From IMG/VR virus record IMGVR_UViG_2939521961_000018: a stretch of DNA of 64,000 nt; one strand, 5' to 3'. This document shows, piece by piece, positions 7,095 through 31,145 of the stretch. Source of the DNA: a virus (Duplodnaviria; Heunggongvirae; Uroviricota; Caudoviricetes). Under the pieces are notes generated by a model. That model ran no database searches. It saw only the letters and a list, made by a program, of their open reading frames with translations, and was not told the origin of the DNA. How positions within the stretch are numbered: position 1 is the stretch's first letter; every line of letters begins with the position of its first letter. The position numbers were made by a program, and so were the translations under genes.

Positions 7095-7304
7095 CAGCTT
7101 TTCCTTACAGAGGGTGAATAAAAAAGCCGGTACCCACAAAAGTGGATACCGGCAGGTACAAAACAGCATGGTCAGATAAAGTGGTTTTTCCCGGACATAA
7201 ATGTTTCCCCTCTCTCATCCGCCAGAGAAGTATCAGTCCGTTGTGTGCAATTCCGTTCTGCATGATGAAGAGATTCAGCTGCCTTTTCGCAGACCATTAA
7301 CCAC

Positions 7305-7350
7305 TATAAACGATCGATAGTAACGATCGATACCTGTTTTATCGATCGTT
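7305..7350. promoter_or_regulatory. agn43 phase-variation switch: three Dam GATC sites within the OxyR binding region
   Basis: GATC at about 7312, 7325 and 7344 in AAACGATCGATAGTAACGATCGATACCTGTTTTATCGATCG, 150-200 bp upstream of the flu start. Confidence 0.7.
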
Positions 7351-23762: not shown

Positions 23763-25182
23763 GGCCGTGTCCACATTACGTGGGTAGGATCAATTTTCCT
23801 GATGACCCCATCGACATAGTATTTTTTCAAAGCAAGAATTGCCTTCTCGCTATGTATTCCTGATAGCTTGATCAGGATATCAAAGTCTCTTTCAGATATA
23901 TTCCCCTTTGTCATGTGTCACTCCATGAATCAAATTTCATAGTAATCAATCTTTCTTTGATCGACTTATAGATAATAAGATCAGAAATGATAAAAAAGTA
24001 ACGCATATTTCTTCTCGTCATGTCTACTTATAAAATTCAAATGAACTAACCTGAACTACTTACACTGGAATATCATTATATTGGAATAATTATAAAACTG
24101 AACAAAATGGTCAATGTAATCTGGTTAATTTATAAATATTTACATTGCGTGATGATATTTAATTCCAGTGTTAAGTAATGTCACATGCCTATTATTGGTT
24201 ACTACTTTGTAGGTGTTTTGGTTCGGCGTTAATATCATTGGTCATAATCACCTGTGAAAGTTTATTCTTGAAATGTTATAGGTATATTACTTGCAATTAA
24301 AAATGAGAAATTTATTATTATTGTGTTTTGCAAATATAATAATTAAAAATTTATTATAAATTATGATTAGAATTGACAATATAAAAGAATAATAAAACTC
24401 AATATGAAAATAATTATCATCTGGTTTGATACTTTTGCTGTTGATTACAGGAATAAAGTGTCAGAATAATATTGTTATTGGGTAAAAAAAGCCTCCACTA
24501 TATGTGGAGGCAAACCCTTAGATAGTTCTATTGAGGCAAGTATGTTATAAATCTGCCTTATCTTTTATAGCATATAAAGATATGTATGCTATATTTTTTT
24601 TGAAGAAATTTTTCCAGAAATTACAGTAATACAAGAAATATTAACTGGTGTGATTTTTGGATGTTTAATAAGTACAGTGTACTTATATTTTTGTAATAAA
24701 GATGAACGCGTCCTTTAGATAAACTGAAAAATATTAAGCATGTCTCATGTGGTTTTCTGAATCAAAACTCTTTTCAGTCTTTGATTTTTTGTTAAAAACA
24801 GGTTTATTGCAAGGGTGTTGTTGTGAAATGTGTTTTGGTGTCGTTGTGATTTTATGGTGATAATGTGAATTTTTATCCTTTCAAGATGGCTCCCTGGACG
24901 TTAAATACAGTGGAAATTTATATTAAGATATAAATATAACTATTGCGTTATTTAAATTATTGTCTATTACAGCTCCAGTTAATAGAGCCTGAAGTAATTT
25001 CTTAGTATTTCATCATAAGCGTTTATCTATCGTCTCTTTCTAAATTAACCGGTCGTATTACAAGGTGCTGAATCTGATTAAGGAATGATACTTAGGGGAT
25101 TATGGCTGACTTAATAATTAGATAACTGATAAATGACTATCAGGGGGATATCGTTAAGTCAGCCTTTAAAATCAAGCGATTA

Positions 25183-25623
25183 TATAGCTGGTGACTCTTT
25201 TCGAAGAGCATCAAGGTAGTCAGCGTACCATTGCATCATTTCTCGTCTTCCTTCAAGGTAACGAGCATGGTTGTATGTACCACGAATGCTGTTTTTGTCC
25301 GTATGTGCAAGTTGCATTTCAATCCATGCACTATTGAATCCTTGCTCGTGTAGAACAGTACTCATTGTATGACGAAATCCATGCCCGGTAGCTTTTTTGT
25401 CATAGCCAATCTTCTTCAAAACCATATTGACGCTTGCATCGCTGATAGGCCTGTTAACATCATTTCTTCCGGCAAAGATGTATCTGTATCTTCCAGTCAG
25501 TTCTTTGAGGATTTGCAGAGACTGGATTGCCTGATCTGACAGAGGGACGATATGCTCCTTCCTCATTTTCATCCGGGTCGGAGGAACTTCCCATATCTTT
25601 TGGGTAAAATCGATCTCACACCA
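25183..25623 (-). pseudogene. P4-type tyrosine integrase, 3' fragment (C-terminal 147 codons) truncated by IS600
   Basis: Catalytic C-terminus HGFRHTMSTVLHEQGF...IRGTYNHARYLEGRREMMQWYADYLD; reading frame enters from the IS600 end at 25624. Confidence 0.8.
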
Positions 25624-25666
25624 TGAGGTGTACTGGCAATAGCGGACACTACCATTTGTTCTTTTT

Positions 25667-26485
25667 TTAAGCAGCCATCTGATGATATTTTTCCCTGAAG
25701 GCTGCCGGGGAGATATTCCCCAGACGAGAGTGACGACGCTGACGATTGTAGAAAATCTCAATGTATTCCCGTATTACTGAGATGGCTTCATCCCGGTTAT
25801 TAAAACGATAGTGGCTCAGGCTCTCATTTTTCAGCGTTCCCCAGAAGCTTTCCATCGGAGCGTTGTCGTAACAGTTACCTTTACGCGACATTGATGTTTT
25901 CAGACCAAACTGCTCCTGTATGACCCGGTAATCGTATGCGCAGTACTGTGAACCTCGATCAGAGTGGTGGATTAGCCCGGCAGGTGGGCGCTGGCTCCTG
26001 AGCGCCATAAACAGAGCTTTACCTGTCAGCTCTTTTGTCATGCGCTCTCCCATGGCGTAGCCGACAATTTCGCACGTATAAACATCTTTGATGCCAGCGA
26101 GGTACAACCATCCCTCCTGTGTGGCAACATACGTCAGGTCCGCCACCCAGACCTGATTTGGTGCTGTAGGAGCGAACGTCTGGTTCAGCAGATTTGGCGC
26201 AACTGGCAGATTGTGGTTCGAGTTCGTAGTCGCTCTGAACTTGCGTTTCTGCTTACAGCGTAGCCTTAGCTCCTTACGAAGACGTGCCAGTCGGTCACGA
26301 CCAACGATGATGCCATTCTCTGCCAGCTCCGTCTGGAGCCGCCGGGTTCCATATGTTTCGCGAGTGCGGATATGTGCCACCTTAATCTCCAGTTTTAGCC
26401 GCTCATCACTTTGTTTTCTGTCTGAGGGTTCATGCTGTACCCAGTTGTAATAACCGCTCCTGGATACACCAAATACCTGACACAT
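25667..26485 (-). CDS. IS600 OrfB
   Basis: Identical protein to 3198-4016. Confidence 0.9.
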   Translation of the reverse strand: MCQVFGVSRSGYYNWVQHEPSDRKQSDERLKLEIKVAHIRTRETYGTRRLQTELAENGIIVGRDRLARLRKELRLRCKQKRKFRATTNSNHNLPVAPNLLNQTFAPTAPNQVWVADLTYVATQEGWLYLAGIKDVYTCEIVGYAMGERMTKELTGKALFMALRSQRPPAGLIHHSDRGSQYCAYDYRVIQEQFGLKTSMSRKGNCYDNAPMESFWGTLKNESLSHYRFNNRDEAISVIREYIEIFYNRQRRHSRLGNISPAAFREKYHQMAA

Positions 26486-26520
26486 CGCTTCAATGGGAAA
26501 TTGTTGTCGCCATTGTTCGA

Positions 26521-26823
26521 TTAACGCGTATTTTTCAGCGACTCCTGTGCAAAATACGCTGTTGCTTTTTTTAATATATCTCGCTCAAGGCGAGCTTCAT
26601 TTAACGCCTTACGCAGTTGCAGAATTTCAGATTCCAGTTCAGCCACCGTGCGGGAACCAGGAGTACCGAGCCCTTTTCTGGCGGCGGTAACCCATTGTCC
26701 TAAAGTGCCTTCAGGAAGAGATAATCGGGAAGCGCCTTCACTGATCGAAAGTTGATTTTCAAGAACCGTTCTGACAGCTTCGGCTTTGAACTCTTTAGAG
26801 TAACGTTGGGTTTTTCTGCTCAT
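26521..26823 (-). CDS. IS600 OrfA
   Basis: Identical protein to 2860-3162. Confidence 0.9.
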   Translation of the reverse strand: MSRKTQRYSKEFKAEAVRTVLENQLSISEGASRLSLPEGTLGQWVTAARKGLGTPGSRTVAELESEILQLRKALNEARLERDILKKATAYFAQESLKNTR

Positions 26824-27306: not shown

Positions 27307-27672
27307 TTAGGCGGCTGATGTTTCTTCTTTCAGGCTTTCGAGATATTTACGTGGGTCGTCGTAACATTGGCATTCGCTGTACCAATCCACCCAGCGATCA
27401 GTAAGCCCCACCTCTGATAAATCTTCATCGGTAAGGCTCTCATCCCACATCTCAAGGCCGTTAGCATTGCAGTAATCAGGCTTGATGTTGTTGTCATACT
27501 GAAAGGCGTCATAATCAGCCAGTGCGCCCATCAGGCGAACACCCTCTTCAACACTTGCCACTTCTGCAATGAACGGTTTCATAGGTACTTGCGGGATATG
27601 CCAGACACGTAATTTCATATTTCCTCCGTCAAAAAAATCGCCCTCACATTGGAGGGCAAAGAAGATTTCCAA
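27307..27672 (-). CDS. Phage early-left hypothetical protein
   Basis: 121-aa ORF; likely true start at MKLRVWHIPQVPM (about 27618); acidic C-terminus. Confidence 0.45.
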   Translation of the reverse strand: MEIFFALQCEGDFFDGGNMKLRVWHIPQVPMKPFIAEVASVEEGVRLMGALADYDAFQYDNNIKPDYCNANGLEMWDESLTDEDLSEVGLTDRWVDWYSECQCYDDPRKYLESLKEETSAA

Positions 27673-27761
27673 TAATCAGAACAAGTCGGCTCCTGTTTAG
27701 TTACGAGCGACATTGCTCCGTGTATTCACTCGTTGGAATGAATACACAGTGCTTATTCGTA

Positions 27762-28232
27762 CTAATAAAATACCCAATTTTCTGTTTCTTGGTTGTGTCC
27801 AAAGTTATATTCAATATCTGGTGTTGATGTATCAATATTTTTCATCCCATCAACAAGAGTTGATACAACAGCCAAATCTTGTTTTATTCTCATTAAATGG
27901 TATTTCTTCCGGCGCAATAAACTTTCAATAGCAAGTTTCTTCGTTGGGAATGCAAAAGATCTTTCTGCATTTTTTGCTACTTTCTTAATTGCATATCTAT
28001 TTCTCTTTTGTTTCCATTCCTGTAACCACTGATTTGGTGCTGGTTTAAAATTAACAATCCAATGCGCAGGAACCAACCATGCATAATGCTCTGTCTGATG
28101 AAAAGCTATATATTGAAGTGCGAATATTTTGATTCCATCTTCTTCAACTGTCGCCTGGAATCTCCAGAAAACAGGCATTCCATCATGTTCAGTTTCTGAT
28201 TCAGGAAAAGGTACGCTCCATGATTTTGTCAT
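27762..28232 (-). CDS. Hypothetical protein, AT-rich moron candidate
   Basis: 156-aa ORF, AT-rich, divergent from the 28433 gene. Confidence 0.45.
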   Translation of the reverse strand: MTKSWSVPFPESETEHDGMPVFWRFQATVEEDGIKIFALQYIAFHQTEHYAWLVPAHWIVNFKPAPNQWLQEWKQKRNRYAIKKVAKNAERSFAFPTKKLAIESLLRRKKYHLMRIKQDLAVVSTLVDGMKNIDTSTPDIEYNFGHNQETENWVFY

Positions 28233-28432
28233 ATCTCACCTCAAATAAGTGGTTTGCTGTCTAATTTCATTTTCTGGCGACCAACACAAGTCACACCCAT
28301 TTCACTGCGTGGCTTGCGGTAGTAAAGATTGTGCCTGTCTTTTAACCACATCAGGCTCGGTGGTTCTCGTGTACCCCTACAGCGAGAAAAATAGTAAAAT
28401 CCTCTTACCCCTACAGTAAGAGAGTAATTTAT

Positions 28433-28927
28433 ATGGATGTGTTATCTGGTATAACTGCCGCGAAACAGGCTTATGATCTGCTGAAGACAATAAAAGAAAC
28501 CAGAGACGATGCTGTTATCGCTAAAGCTATTGGTGATCTACACCAAAGAATAACTGACTTACAGATGCTTAATGCGGAGCTCTCTGGCCTTTATCAGGCC
28601 GAGAAGGAGATCGCAATGAAGCTTCGAGATGAAAATAGAAAAATCAAGATGTTTGTTGTGCAAGCTGAGAATTATGAACTTCATACAACTGAAGGTGGTT
28701 CTGTCGTGTATCGACCTAAGAGTCATTCCGATCCTTCTATTCAGCAGCATAACCTTTGTGCACATTGCTTCGGCGAACATAAAATATCGATACTTCAACC
28801 AAGCACGGTTACTATAAAATCTAATGGGTTCTTTGTGCATTCATGTCCTCGCTGTAAGAATGAATACCGGATGTATAGAGCGCCAGACCCTAAGCCTGTA
28901 TATGTACCGCCGCTGACAAATTATTAA
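28433..28927 (+). CDS. Hypothetical protein with coiled-coil N-terminus and C-terminal Cys4 zinc-ribbon-like motif
   Basis: CAHCFGEH...HSCPRCKNEY; opposite strand to the early-left operon. Confidence 0.45.
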   Translation: MDVLSGITAAKQAYDLLKTIKETRDDAVIAKAIGDLHQRITDLQMLNAELSGLYQAEKEIAMKLRDENRKIKMFVVQAENYELHTTEGGSVVYRPKSHSDPSIQQHNLCAHCFGEHKISILQPSTVTIKSNGFFVHSCPRCKNEYRMYRAPDPKPVYVPPLTNY

Positions 28928-28957: not shown

Positions 28958-29320
28958 TTACTTTGTCAGGGGGATATCTCCTTCAGTTTTGACCATTCGC
29001 CTTAATACTTTCCTTAAGTCGATGTAAAGTTGAAGGTCTCCATTTGCTGCGGCATCAGCCATTTTTTGCCTGACAAGCAGTAATGTTTCATACGGCTCAA
29101 TAAGAATATCGTCATGAGTAATTAGGTGAAGCGTTGCCGCATCAACTATTCCTAGAGCTGCGCCAAGTATCAAAAATTCCCTGCTATTTTTGTCGCATGA
29201 GGAGATAAGCGTATTTAGCGCATACCTAATATTCTTTATAGCTGTTGTTAATGCTGCAATTTCTTCTATGGCGTCTTCTCCAATGAGCTTTTTAAGCTCA
29301 TATTTTTCTTCCTGACCCAT
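28958..29320 (-). CDS. Phage early-left hypothetical protein
   Basis: ORF-track ORF 28958-29404 trimmed to MGQEEKYELKK so that it starts just after the N stop. Confidence 0.4.
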   Translation of the reverse strand: MGQEEKYELKKLIGEDAIEEIAALTTAIKNIRYALNTLISSCDKNSREFLILGAALGIVDAATLHLITHDDILIEPYETLLLVRQKMADAAANGDLQLYIDLRKVLRRMVKTEGDIPLTK

Positions 29321-29322
29321 AA

Positions 29323-29595
29323 TTACCTCGCCGTCAGTTGTTTTGATTTCCGGTAGCCTGCCGCGTAAATGGCTACGTTTGGCAGGCAAATACTTCCACT
29401 GCATTCATCTGCCTTCTTGCAGCGAAGGCTTCCGAGTGATGCTGCTTTATCTGCTCTGACGCAACCAGAGAGCTTTAGCGCAATTTTTCGTGCCAATCGC
29501 TGTTCTTGCATTGCCTGTTCACGTTGAGCCTGTCTGCGTGCTCTGCGGCGATTTCTGGCGTTATCGTCAGCCAGATATGTAATGACTACTGTCAT
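29323..29595 (-). CDS. N-type transcription antiterminator (P22 gp24-like)
   Basis: Arginine-rich motif NARNRRRARRQAQREQ near N-terminus; C-terminus LPNVAIYAAGYRKSKQLTAR matches recalled P22 gp24 end; lies between OL/PL and the early-left genes. Confidence 0.7.
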   Translation of the reverse strand: MTVVITYLADDNARNRRRARRQAQREQAMQEQRLARKIALKLSGCVRADKAASLGSLRCKKADECSGSICLPNVAIYAAGYRKSKQLTAR

Positions 29596-29702
29596 GTTGA
29601 CCTCCGATGATTGACTTTGGCGGTGACGCGCCGCGTGCTTATCTTCCGGTTGCCGTCTTGCAGCTGCACTTCACGTCACCCCAAAGCCAACTACTCTTTG
29701 GT

Positions 29703-29750
29703 TCCCGCATTTCGGCGGGACAATCCCATCAATGTTAAAGAGCCTGCCAA
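29703..29750 (-). promoter_or_regulatory. nutL (boxB hairpin plus boxA-like GCTCTTTAAC)
   Basis: boxB UCCCGCCGAAAUGCGGGA (minus-strand RNA), same hairpin as nutR; boxA-like element 20-30 nt on the promoter side. Confidence 0.5.
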
Positions 29751-29992: not shown

Positions 29993-30030
29993 CAGGAAAA
30001 GAAAACCCGGCGCTGAGGCCGGGTGTTTTT
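29993..30030. terminator. Bidirectional rho-independent terminator ending the cI operon
   Basis: Hairpin CCCGGCGCTGAGGCCGGG flanked by an A-run on one side and TGTTTTT on the other. Confidence 0.5.
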
Positions 30031-30325
30031 AGTCTTTTCTTTTGCTTAGCATTTCGTCGATTTCTAAGTCAATACGATATTGATCTATTGCTTTTCTCTC
30101 GTTTGGGGTTGGTATTTTATACTGTTCAATTAGATCTGTTGTGTATTTTATTTCATCTAATGTGATTTTTATATCAGAGAGAATCTCTTTTATATCAATT
30201 ATATGCTCTTCTTCTTTTGCACGATTAGAGCTATGTTCAATCATTTGAGATAGCTTTTTACTAATGCTTAGCAAAACAAAAAGAATGATGACCAAAACAA
30301 CAACAAAAACTATCAGAAATTCCAT
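30029..30325 (-). CDS. Small single-pass membrane protein in the rex/sie position downstream of cI (superinfection-exclusion candidate)
   Basis: N-terminal TM FLIVFVVVLVIILFVLLSI, charged coiled-coil-like remainder; AT-rich; co-directional with cI. Confidence 0.5.
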   Translation of the reverse strand: MEFLIVFVVVLVIILFVLLSISKKLSQMIEHSSNRAKEEEHIIDIKEILSDIKITLDEIKYTTDLIEQYKIPTPNERKAIDQYRIDLEIDEMLSKRKD

Positions 30326-30365: not shown

Positions 30366-31070
30366 TTACCAACTATGAGACGACCAGAATACTCTGCCAA
30401 TAATCCTTACGGTTTCATGAAATTCATCTCTATCCATTACTTCATCCGGGTACTCTTCGCGATTTATTGATCTGATTATCACCGATGTAGGGGTGGCGAT
30501 TAATGTTTTTACTCGTAACAAATCAGACTGGCAAATAGCGTAGGTTTTACCATCTCTGATTGTGGTATCTTGCGTGTTAACACCAACAACATCGCCATCG
30601 TGAAGCGTTGGTTCCATGCTTTGCCCTACAACCCTAACTAGCTTGGCTGATCTTTCAGATACTCCCATCTTTTTCAGATAGTGCTTTCTGAAAACCAAAG
30701 AGAACTCCGATGATTCCTCTAGCTCGCAGCTACCGCTTCCAGCTGAAAGCGAAACGTTAAGAAGAGGCAACGCAACAAACTCGTCATCGTTTCTTTTAAT
30801 GTCTTCCCATACCACAGCTTTTAAAGATGAATCACGGACATTGGATGGTTCTTCATGTGCACCATCCCTCATTTCACCAATACCAGAACTAAGCCATTCA
30901 GGGCGCACTTTTAAAGCATTGGCTAATTCAACCATCTTGCGAGATCCGTTTGTTTTACCGGACGACATCTTCTGTATGGCTGGCTGAGATATTCCAACCA
31001 TGTCAGCAAGCTGTGATTGTGATACCCCTGCTGAGCTCATGGCTGCATTTAGTCTTTCTGCGAATGTTTT
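30366..31070 (-). CDS. cI: CI-type prophage repressor (HTH plus LexA-like S24 peptidase domain)
   Basis: HTH LADMVGISQPAIQKM; autocleavage Ser in VVGQSMEPTLHDGD; start taken at MKTFAERL so the ORF does not overlap OR. Confidence 0.8.
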   Translation of the reverse strand, partial: KTFAERLNAAMSSAGVSQSQLADMVGISQPAIQKMSSGKTNGSRKMVELANALKVRPEWLSSGIGEMRDGAHEEPSNVRDSSLKAVVWEDIKRNDDEFVALPLLNVSLSAGSGSCELEESSEFSLVFRKHYLKKMGVSERSAKLVRVVGQSMEPTLHDGDVVGVNTQDTTIRDGKTYAICQSDLLRVKTLIATPTSVIIRSINREEYPDEVMDRDEFHETVRIIGRVFWSSHSW

Positions 31071-31083
31071 CATACCCACAAAT

Positions 31084-31145
31084 CTATAACTACGGTTATC
31101 CAAAGTAAAATAACAAAGGTTATTGCTATTTTTTATAACTTGAGT
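31084..31145. promoter_or_regulatory. OR operators (three ATAAC-N4-GTTAT palindromes) with divergent PRM/PR
   Basis: ATAACTACGGTTAT 31084-31097, ATAACAAAGGTTAT 31107-31120, ATAACTTGAGTTAT 31132-31145, spaced 23-25 bp, between cI and cro. Confidence 0.6.

Follow-up and report, generated by a model that had tools for sequence, protein, structure and literature searches.

A Rip1-family gene behind the sieB/sas cassette in the leftward early operon of a Stx1a prophage

The stretch of IMG/VR record IMGVR_UViG_2939521961_000018 analysed here, 64,000 nucleotides of a tailed virus (hereafter the window), carries two divergently oriented open reading frames (ORFs) at positions 27,762 to 28,927: a minus-strand ORF encoding 156 amino acids (aa) and a plus-strand ORF encoding 164 aa, hkaP. 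The 1.9 kb of the window that were tested are 100% identical to E. coli O26:H11 str. 11368 (and many others) as well as to the Stx1a phage 10051, an identity by which the window can be assigned to a Stx1a prophage of E. coli O26:H11. From the local gene order (Table 1), the locus belongs to that portion of the prophage's leftward early (pL) operon which lies close to N, the direction of pL transcription across the region being set by the minus-strand N gene. In line with an earlier note made from the sequence alone, both ORFs are real, the gap between them measures exactly 200 bp, and both genes are AT-rich: G and C make up 35% of the 156-aa gene, 41% of hkaP and 47% of the window. The note had also described the 164-aa protein as a coiled coil with a Cys4 motif resembling a zinc ribbon, which agrees with the long helices predicted for residues 3-78 and the CAHC...CPRC beta domain that follows.

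HkaP is 99% identical to HkaP of phage HK620, where the protein is annotated as a 'putative superinfection exclusion protein' (Clark et al. 2001), apparently on its position, and where the gene is accompanied by the same upstream cassette, hkaQ and N. Several lines of evidence connect HkaP with Rip1. A phmmer search against the PDB matched residues 3-146 to 'ring interacting pore 1 (Rip1)' with an E value of 1.8e-10. Moreover, the AlphaFold2 (AF2) model of HkaP (predicted local distance difference test, pLDDT, 83.8), which comprises helices at residues 3-22 and 26-78 and then the beta domain, was matched by Foldseek to 9oox_M over 123 columns (E 1.2e-6, probability 1.0, TM score 0.58 for the query and 0.73 for the target); the PDB entry 9oox represents Rip1 of phage HK446 complexed with the T6 small terminase. 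Alignment by BLASTP of HkaP and the HK446 protein, HK446_037, yielded 28% identity (E 4e-14), and hhalign of the HkaP and Rip1 subfamily alignments 99.4% (E 7e-22, 150 columns). Both proteins belong to phrog_1244 and have the CxxC...CxxC and SILQ motifs in common, the four Cys residues of HkaP (CAHC at 109-112 and CPRC at 138-141) being invariant in 25 homologs. With a profile of 25 HkaP homologs, 2,140 cluster representatives were retrieved from the exhaustive library, nearly all of them 145-175 aa in length. The homologs obtained by the word-indexed search are from Enterobacterales only and without a Pfam domain, and all homolog contexts encountered correspond to lambdoid or P22-like prophages or viral contigs; no neighbour gene conserved across the diverged homologs was found.

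The review PMC13434031, which cites Patel et al. (Nature 651:1060, 2026), portrays Rip1 as a lone prophage protein that does no harm by itself. As outlined there, it is triggered by the rings of the phage portal or small terminase, a 12-mer Rip1 ring encircling an 11-mer terminase, and it forms a pore via its amphipathic N-terminal part, which results in premature cell lysis. Relatives of Rip1 are said there to be common in proteobacterial prophages, and activity is known for the Rip1 proteins from phage HK446 and from a Pseudomonas aeruginosa prophage only. HkaP resembles HK446 Rip1 in its 164-aa length class, the PHROG family, full-length profile homology, predicted fold and its occurrence as a single prophage gene. 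The genomic slot is likewise the same, since HK446_037 lies rightward between N and cIII behind the same upstream cassette. In contrast, HkaP lacks the first ~11 residues and the Gly/Ala-rich hydrophobic N-terminal stretch of HK446 Rip1: its helical residues 3-78 reach a hydrophobic moment of up to 0.5, and the maximum of the hydropathy measure KD19 is 0.6 versus 1.28 in HK446 Rip1. Furthermore, hkaQ lies between hkaP and N in the window, whereas HK446 is without hkaQ. Taken together, hkaP is a member of the Rip1 family as judged by sequence, predicted fold and context, and an anti-phage activity as well as its trigger may be assigned to it by homology. The earlier suggestion that the plus-strand gene is a moron is thereby borne out: hkaP is a lysogen-type gene oriented against pL, located at the exact sieB position of lambda and P22 behind a homolog of the P22 sieB promoter, and it belongs to an anti-phage family. 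Homologs of known function, which the same note had named as what would speak against its reading, thus exist for the plus-strand gene with HK446 Rip1.

Other assignments were considered and rejected. HkaP is not a SieB protein (phrog_1301/phrog_6399), as it matches phrog_1244 only, contains no hydrophobic segment and clusters apart from SieB-like cargo. The gene hkaQ does not qualify as a conserved partner or immunity gene; it accompanies only the HK620-type hkaP allele (at least 98% identical) and is absent beside the diverged homologs and beside HK446 rip1. For a longer hkaQ ORF a match to AbiH was so weak (E 0.16) that it is regarded as noise. Searches of Pfam, NCBIfam and PADLOC-2023 returned nothing significant for either the 156-aa or the 164-aa ORF, Rip1 being later than those libraries.

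Table 1. Features of the hkaP locus and its surroundings (positions in the window).
Feature	Position	Strand	Remarks
P22 gene 17 homolog	27307-27618	-	PF17420, E 2e-53
Intrinsic terminator	about 27638-27659		
tL2A-type inverted repeat (GTGTATTCA...TGAATACAC)	27720-27748	-	just downstream of the 156-aa gene; homologous HK620 site annotated tL2A
156-aa ORF, 933W L0079 family	27762-28232	-	
Intergenic region, 200 bp	28233-28432		
933W-type leader of the 156-aa gene and remnant of the 3' end of a 933W-type N gene	28233-28291	-	alignment with 933W and lambda
Homolog of P22 sas antisense RNA, conserved body	28316-28427	-	P22A-sas aligns 28427..28316; both decamers as CUGUAGGGGU
Interleaved helices S2 and S1	28333-28364	-	pseudoknot-like or mutually exclusive
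S1, GCCUG/CAGGC	28352-28356 with 28333-28337	-	
S2, ACCAC/GUGGU	28360-28364 with 28345-28349	-	
Hairpin B, UUCUCG/CGAGAA with inner UGUA-GGGG-UACA	28364-28388	-	first decamer forms its top; from folding
Repeat copy 1 (TACCCCTACAG)	28372-28382	+	ACCCCTACAG core at -34..-25 of the predicted hkaP promoter, transferred from P22
Predicted -10 TAAAAT of the P_sieB-type promoter	28395-28400	+	alignment to P22 P_sieB; TAAACT in P22/lambda; poor -35 (TACCCC)
Repeat copy 2	28406-28416	+	hkaP mRNA predicted to begin at its A (28407)
hkaP, 164-aa ORF	28433-28927	+ (rightward)	
hkaQ, 120 aa, phrog_7374	28958-29320	-	first pL gene after N; convergent with hkaP
N antiterminator, H19B/HK620 type	29323-29595	-	Arg-rich motif; 98% identity to N of HK620
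98-aa membrane ORF	30029-30325	-	one N-terminal hydrophobic segment
cI-like repressor	30366-31103	leftward	

The region between the two ORFs contains the direct repeat reported before, although with a different spacing: TACCCCTACAG is present exactly twice in the 64 kb, and the two copies, both on the plus strand, are 34 bp apart from start to start (a gap of 23 bp) and not 39 bp. A shuffle test of the 11-mer alone was weak, as 7 of 100 shuffles contained at least two matches anywhere in the window when one mismatch was allowed. In lambda, P22, HK620, HK446 and the window alike, both copies keep an invariant ACCCCTACAG core and stand 34 bp apart. Because this conservation is stronger evidence than the shuffle test, it is chiefly on this ground that we consider the repeat to be non-random. 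Positions 28309-28427 are 86-88% identical to the sieB upstream region of lambda and P22, which one P22 record labels 'sieB promoter', and an alignment of four phages shows no variation from TGCCTGTC to the end of the first decamer. The P22 record BK000583 places P_sieB at 29690-29720 and the start of the sieB RNA at 29727, the A of the second ACCCCTACAG; the first P22 decamer is therefore located at -34..-25 of the mapped start. Transferred to the window, this predicts a weak promoter and an hkaP leader of 26 nucleotides (28407-28432) with the ribosome-binding site GAGAG. The consensus promoter scan misses the P_sieB-type promoter, its -35 being weak. Upstream of HK446 rip1, 100 bp correspond to the window with one mismatch, the homology ending precisely with the ATG.

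In the HK620-type cassette the second decamer lies inside a hairpin of 7-9 bp (CTCTTAC...GTAAGAG, 28401-28423). On the minus strand this hairpin is followed by a U-rich tract and has a terminator-like score, so that it could end or pause leftward transcripts without N modification. A reading of the repeats as part of a toxin-antitoxin, retron or CRISPR-like element was dismissed for lack of supporting evidence.

In P22, the sas antisense RNA was detected by sRNA sequencing as the 127-nucleotide P22A-sas, which extends leftward of the sieB AUG and covers both decamers as CUGUAGGGGU (PMC13397905), and its conserved body is present in the window (Table 1). Thus, the TACCCCTACAG repeat is part of the known sieB promoter/sas cassette and not an operator. 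The proposal that the two copies serve as regulator sites, implicitly for the zinc-ribbon protein, is not supported, because they sit at -34..-25 and +1..+10 of a P_sieB-type promoter and inside the sas antisense RNA; moreover, the same repeats precede SieB, which is without a zinc ribbon, in lambda and P22. As to the role of sas, the relevant parts of PMC12197685 and PMC7067206 describe its pairing with the sieB mRNA, by which translation is switched between SieB and Esc.

The structure of the minus-strand RNA was evaluated by scoring three helices on 45 distinct homologs of the cassette, with pairing partners slid by 1-3 columns and 500 shuffles as controls. Pairing was observed in 95.9% of the cells versus 25-38% in the slid controls, and none of the 500 shuffles reached the observed values. 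Six changes affecting both sides of a pair were recorded over the three helices, five of them in helices 2 and 3. Hairpin B (helix 1) is 97% paired and shows UA/UG and GC/UA changes, and for helices 2 and 3 the paired fraction is 93% and 97%, respectively, their variants including AACCUCA/UGAGGUU and GCCGGG/CCCGGC. When protein-anchored variants were added, hairpin B was found with 18 different combinations of arms, all of which pair. Many of these combinations contain G.U pairs, which on the plus strand would be A.C mismatches; as such pairs work in the minus-strand RNA alone, the constraint acts on that RNA. The folding energies of single sequences do not stand out (z -0.6 and -1.8), and Rfam gave no match at gathering thresholds in the region of interest, nor at E up to 1 in 28200-28520. 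Taken together, the sieB-type block specifies a structured, covarying minus-strand RNA.

A scan of IMG/VR for the double decamer yielded about 120 loci, with a 24-nucleotide gap in 115 of the 124 matches. About 90 of these loci have a SieB-like ORF behind the decamers and 26 an HkaP/Rip1-like one, and a few are low-complexity chance matches. In two IMG/VR contigs (L006, ~1093-1135, and L096) a genuine sieB-type cassette with the pseudoknot-like block and both decamers precedes other small ORFs of 83 and 105 aa, the latter with several hydrophobic segments; neither has a PHROG match. The cassette is thus common to unrelated cargoes and represents a portable module. In P22 and lambda it precedes sieB with an arrangement like that of hkaP: a gene read rightward, placed between N and the ral/17 region, with homologous promoter, start decamer and sas body. 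The logic is likewise similar, a lysogen-expressed abortive-infection gene being opposed by a pL-direction RNA. The cargo itself differs, SieB being a membrane protein (phrog_1301) unrelated to the soluble-looking Rip1 homolog HkaP, and sas is cargo-specific where it pairs with the ribosome-binding site and the AUG.

Since a decamer-anchored sample keeps the decamers invariant by construction, their co-evolution was judged on loci fetched via HkaP-like proteins. In those that contain the cassette, the two decamers are either kept or changed together. Homologs of the same clade with at least 56% identity to HkaP have ACCCCTACAG as both copy 1 and copy 2, while at 48% identity (L160) both copies read ACCCCTACAA. 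At 25% identity (L161 and L162) both copies are (T/A)CCCCAACAA, and the locus with 26% identity (L165) combines CCCCAACAA as copy 1 with CCCCCACAA as copy 2. In the frameshifted copies of E. coli and Shigella (L132, L133 and L166-L168) the second copy was seen as CCCCAACAA. These loci, L132 and L133 being located on Shigella flexneri and E. coli chromosomes, contain an HkaP/Rip1-like pseudogene behind a TATAAT -10 and CCCCAACAA, which is a decayed copy of the L161-type gene. Hairpin B compensates for what changes in copy 1, but no local feature accounts for copy 2 following suit; the two copies are thus coupled in function. Our best guess is an RNA-RNA recognition, in which the first 10 nucleotides of the mRNA would be complementary to both CUGUAGGGGU elements of the antisense RNA and could pair with either. 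In the IS10 RNA-IN/RNA-OUT system the 5'-end of the target mRNA is complementary to an element at the top of the antisense hairpin. This likeness is one of mechanism, with no sequence relation, and in the cassette the recognition element is duplicated.

The 156-aa protein belongs to phrog_1636 (E 5e-112), and its gene is about 98% identical in DNA sequence to L0079 of phage 933W. Homologs span the Enterobacterales and are without a Pfam domain; the AF2 model of the protein is poor (pLDDT 63.8), and no credible Foldseek match was obtained in the PDB or BFVD. In 933W, L0079 is the first gene after N and no hkaP is present, whereas here the hkaP-hkaQ module stands between N and the 156-aa gene. 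In HK620 the tL2A hairpin directly adjoins the cassette, and the 933W-type gene is inserted at that point in the window. The intergenic region is a mosaic. Its left ~60 bp, up to about 28291, are of the 933W type, and its right ~120 bp are of the sieB type, with homology to lambda and P22 from about 28311, so that alignment with 933W and lambda places the joint at about 28292-28312. The intergenic positions 1-94 of the query match the 3' region of N in many Stx phages, and at 28250-28291, flanked by the 156-aa gene and the sas block, a piece of the 3'-end of a 933W-type N persists; the N that functions in the prophage is of the H19B/HK620 type. This remnant is a scar left when recombination brought the two modules together. 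The consensus scan revealed no minus-strand promoter in the intergenic region or in the 5'-end of hkaP, and the 156-aa gene is therefore read from pL. Thus, it is an ordinary N-dependent gene of the pL operon that was brought beside the cassette by recombination, and not a partner of hkaP.

Considering all these data, we regard it as probable that hkaP is a Rip1-type defence gene placed behind the sieB/sas cassette, to which the unrelated 156-aa neighbour was joined by mosaic recombination. In the lysogen, HkaP would be made from the weak promoter, the mRNA starting at the A at 28407 as suggested by homology to the mapped P22 site. By homology to Rip1, the protein would be harmless until a superinfecting phage builds its ring-shaped small terminase or portal, and would then assemble around the ring and form a membrane pore, killing the cell before the progeny is finished. 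When pL fires, either upon induction or from an incoming sibling phage, leftward transcription would run antisense through hkaP, which it must cross because the gene lies between N and the rest of the operon. This transcription would yield a structured sas-type RNA from 28427 to 28316 that is complementary to the whole hkaP 5'-untranslated region and the start codon, and would stop new synthesis or translation of HkaP during the prophage's own lytic growth; with its synthesis off, HkaP would not be triggered by the phage's own terminase or portal. In this scheme repeat copy 1 would serve twice, over the -35 region and as the top of hairpin B in the antisense RNA, and copy 2 would provide the first 10 nucleotides of the mRNA. 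For P22 itself, Ranade and Poteete are said to have found in 1993 that the superinfecting phage makes sas, whereupon the synthesis of SieB is blocked and that of Esc continues.

The earlier note had treated the divergent genes as one two-gene moron, in which the zinc-ribbon protein or its partner binds the direct repeats and regulates both genes. The adjacency, divergence and AT-richness of the genes fit this reading, as does the location of the repeats at -35 and +1, a frequent place for regulator binding. Moreover, 64 of the 66 hkaP copies in E. coli genomes adjoin the 156-aa gene. These 64 genomes, however, share one near-clonal O26-type prophage, the records listed for the joint arrangement all being 100% identical and including O26-type strains. 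Of 5,426 complete E. coli genomes, 598 carry the 156-aa gene (at 834 places) and 66 this hkaP allele, and each gene occurs without the other: the former in 933W and about 530 other genomes, the latter in HK620, HK629, HK630 and several IMG/VR contigs. In HK620, HK629 and HK630 hkaP is kept together with hkaQ, and the tL2A hairpin abuts the cassette. At all fetched loci of HkaP homologs with 70% identity or less neither an L0079 nor an HkaQ homolog was found nearby, so that the diverged homologs never neighbour the 156-aa gene. Lambda and P22, phages without HkaP, have the same repeats in front of sieB, and PMC13434031 treats Rip1 as a single-protein system. Nor is the region a shared, regulated divergent one, for only the geometry suggests this; the 200 bp are a recombination mosaic in which no minus-strand promoter-like site was found. 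The two-gene reading, to which we assign a very small probability, is thus already largely refuted by the distribution data.

Concerning the coupling of the decamers, the main rival to RNA-RNA recognition is a shared DNA-binding protein. The decamers would then be DNA sites for one trans-acting phage or host protein that activates the -35-less promoter at copy 1 or represses it at copy 2, with a secondary role for the RNA. The exact overlap of the poor -35 with copy 1 is consistent with this idea, and identical repeats 34 bp apart that change in concert are what would be expected if one protein reads both. On the other hand, this spacing puts the copies on different helical faces, no candidate binding protein is linked to the cassette, and the identical decamer is present in phages of different immunity and with different neighbours. 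The compensation of copy-1 changes in the 3' arm of hairpin B, including the G.U pairs valid on the minus strand only, furthermore signifies a constraint on RNA, and we consider such a protein unlikely. Slightly more weight, yet still little, is given to the notion that the cassette is merely an inherited promoter and linker, kept by recent descent and by recombination at mosaic boundaries, without antisense control; self-immunity, if needed, would then result from the phage's own terminase or portal not being recognised. The near identity of the cassette copies of lambda, P22, HK620 and HK446, which leaves little elapsed time, and the sharp end of homology at the ATG, as for a recombination linker, are in line with this notion, as are the HkaP homologs without the cassette and the missing conservation of an Esc-like internal start. 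However, the diverged cassettes retain all three helices through compensatory changes with the decamers still matched, and the position of hkaP between N and the remaining operon means that pL transcription crosses it antisense in any case.

Several points weigh against a Rip1-type defence gene under sas control. HkaP and the Rip1 proteins of known activity are distant, the identity to the tested HK446 protein being 28%, and HkaP begins ~11 residues later with a less hydrophobic N-terminus (KD19 0.6 versus 1.28); defence, trigger and pore are attributed to this allele by homology to Rip1. The putative start site of hkaP and the putative antisense RNA are likewise carried over from P22. The 5'-end of sas lies in cargo-specific sequence, and the scan revealed no minus-strand promoter inside the 5'-end of hkaP; inspection by eye for a discrete sas promoter gave nothing convincing in P22 or in the window. 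Some homologs (L130, L157-L159, L163 and L164) are without the cassette altogether, and recent common descent could account for much of the cassette identity. Finally, P22 sas switches from SieB to the internal product Esc, and as HkaP has no conserved internal start, the logic may differ. Within hkaP, a strong Shine-Dalgarno sequence, AAGGAG (28604-28609), precedes the in-frame ATG of Met62 (28616) by 6 nucleotides, the whole element spanning 28604-28618. This Met62 codon and its Shine-Dalgarno sequence are not conserved in the HkaP homologs or in HK446 rip1, and an Esc-like internal start was therefore rejected as a family feature. In this allele, a start at Met62 would give a 103-aa C-terminal fragment without the N-terminal helices, which could speculatively be regarded as Esc-like.

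The surroundings of the locus provide some further observations. The P22 gene 17 homolog lies two genes downstream, past the intrinsic terminator at 27638-27659, and with it the prophage stacks several exclusion-related genes in this stretch; beyond it, kil, erf and abc-type genes follow. The 98-aa ORF directly downstream of the cI-like repressor occupies the position of rexAB in lambda, is without a family match and is probably another lysogen-expressed moron. An IS3-family element (orfA 26521-26823 and orfB 25667-26485, minus strand) lies beside or inside a truncated integrase-like ORF (25180-25761), the whole spanning 25180-26823. In addition, Rfam matches to the ALIL pseudoknot, a frameshift element of the IS3 family (121 bits, 49132-49248, plus strand), and to IS102 RNA (70 bits, 7113-7349, minus strand) indicate further insertion sequences in the window.

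The Rip1 family and the sieB promoter/sas cassette are already known; modestly new are the link between them and the concerted evolution of the decamers. Beyond this, we tentatively propose, as a possibility we hold to be rather less than even, that the sieB upstream block is a portable self-silencing cassette for suicide-type defence genes (SieB, Rip1/HkaP and at least two other small ORFs) of lambdoid and P22-like prophages, which would be on in the lysogen and turned off by the pL-direction antisense RNA when the phage is lytic, with the duplicated decamer as the recognition element, a role that would account for the co-evolution of its copies; the Met62 fragment could then be an Esc-like product that binds the ring and forms no pore. 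If true, such a fragment would explain how Rip1-carrying prophages escape their own terminase or portal. The present analysis gives a name and a testable function to a gene listed as 'hypothetical' in RefSeq in a clinically important Stx1 prophage of O26:H11, where a Rip1-type abortive-infection gene could shape which phages, other Stx phages included, superinfect these strains. It joins the sieB/sas antisense switch of 1993 with the Rip1 pore of 2026, both cargoes being found behind the same cassette, and this shared cassette suggests how a prophage may avoid setting off its own terminase- or portal-sensing suicide protein.

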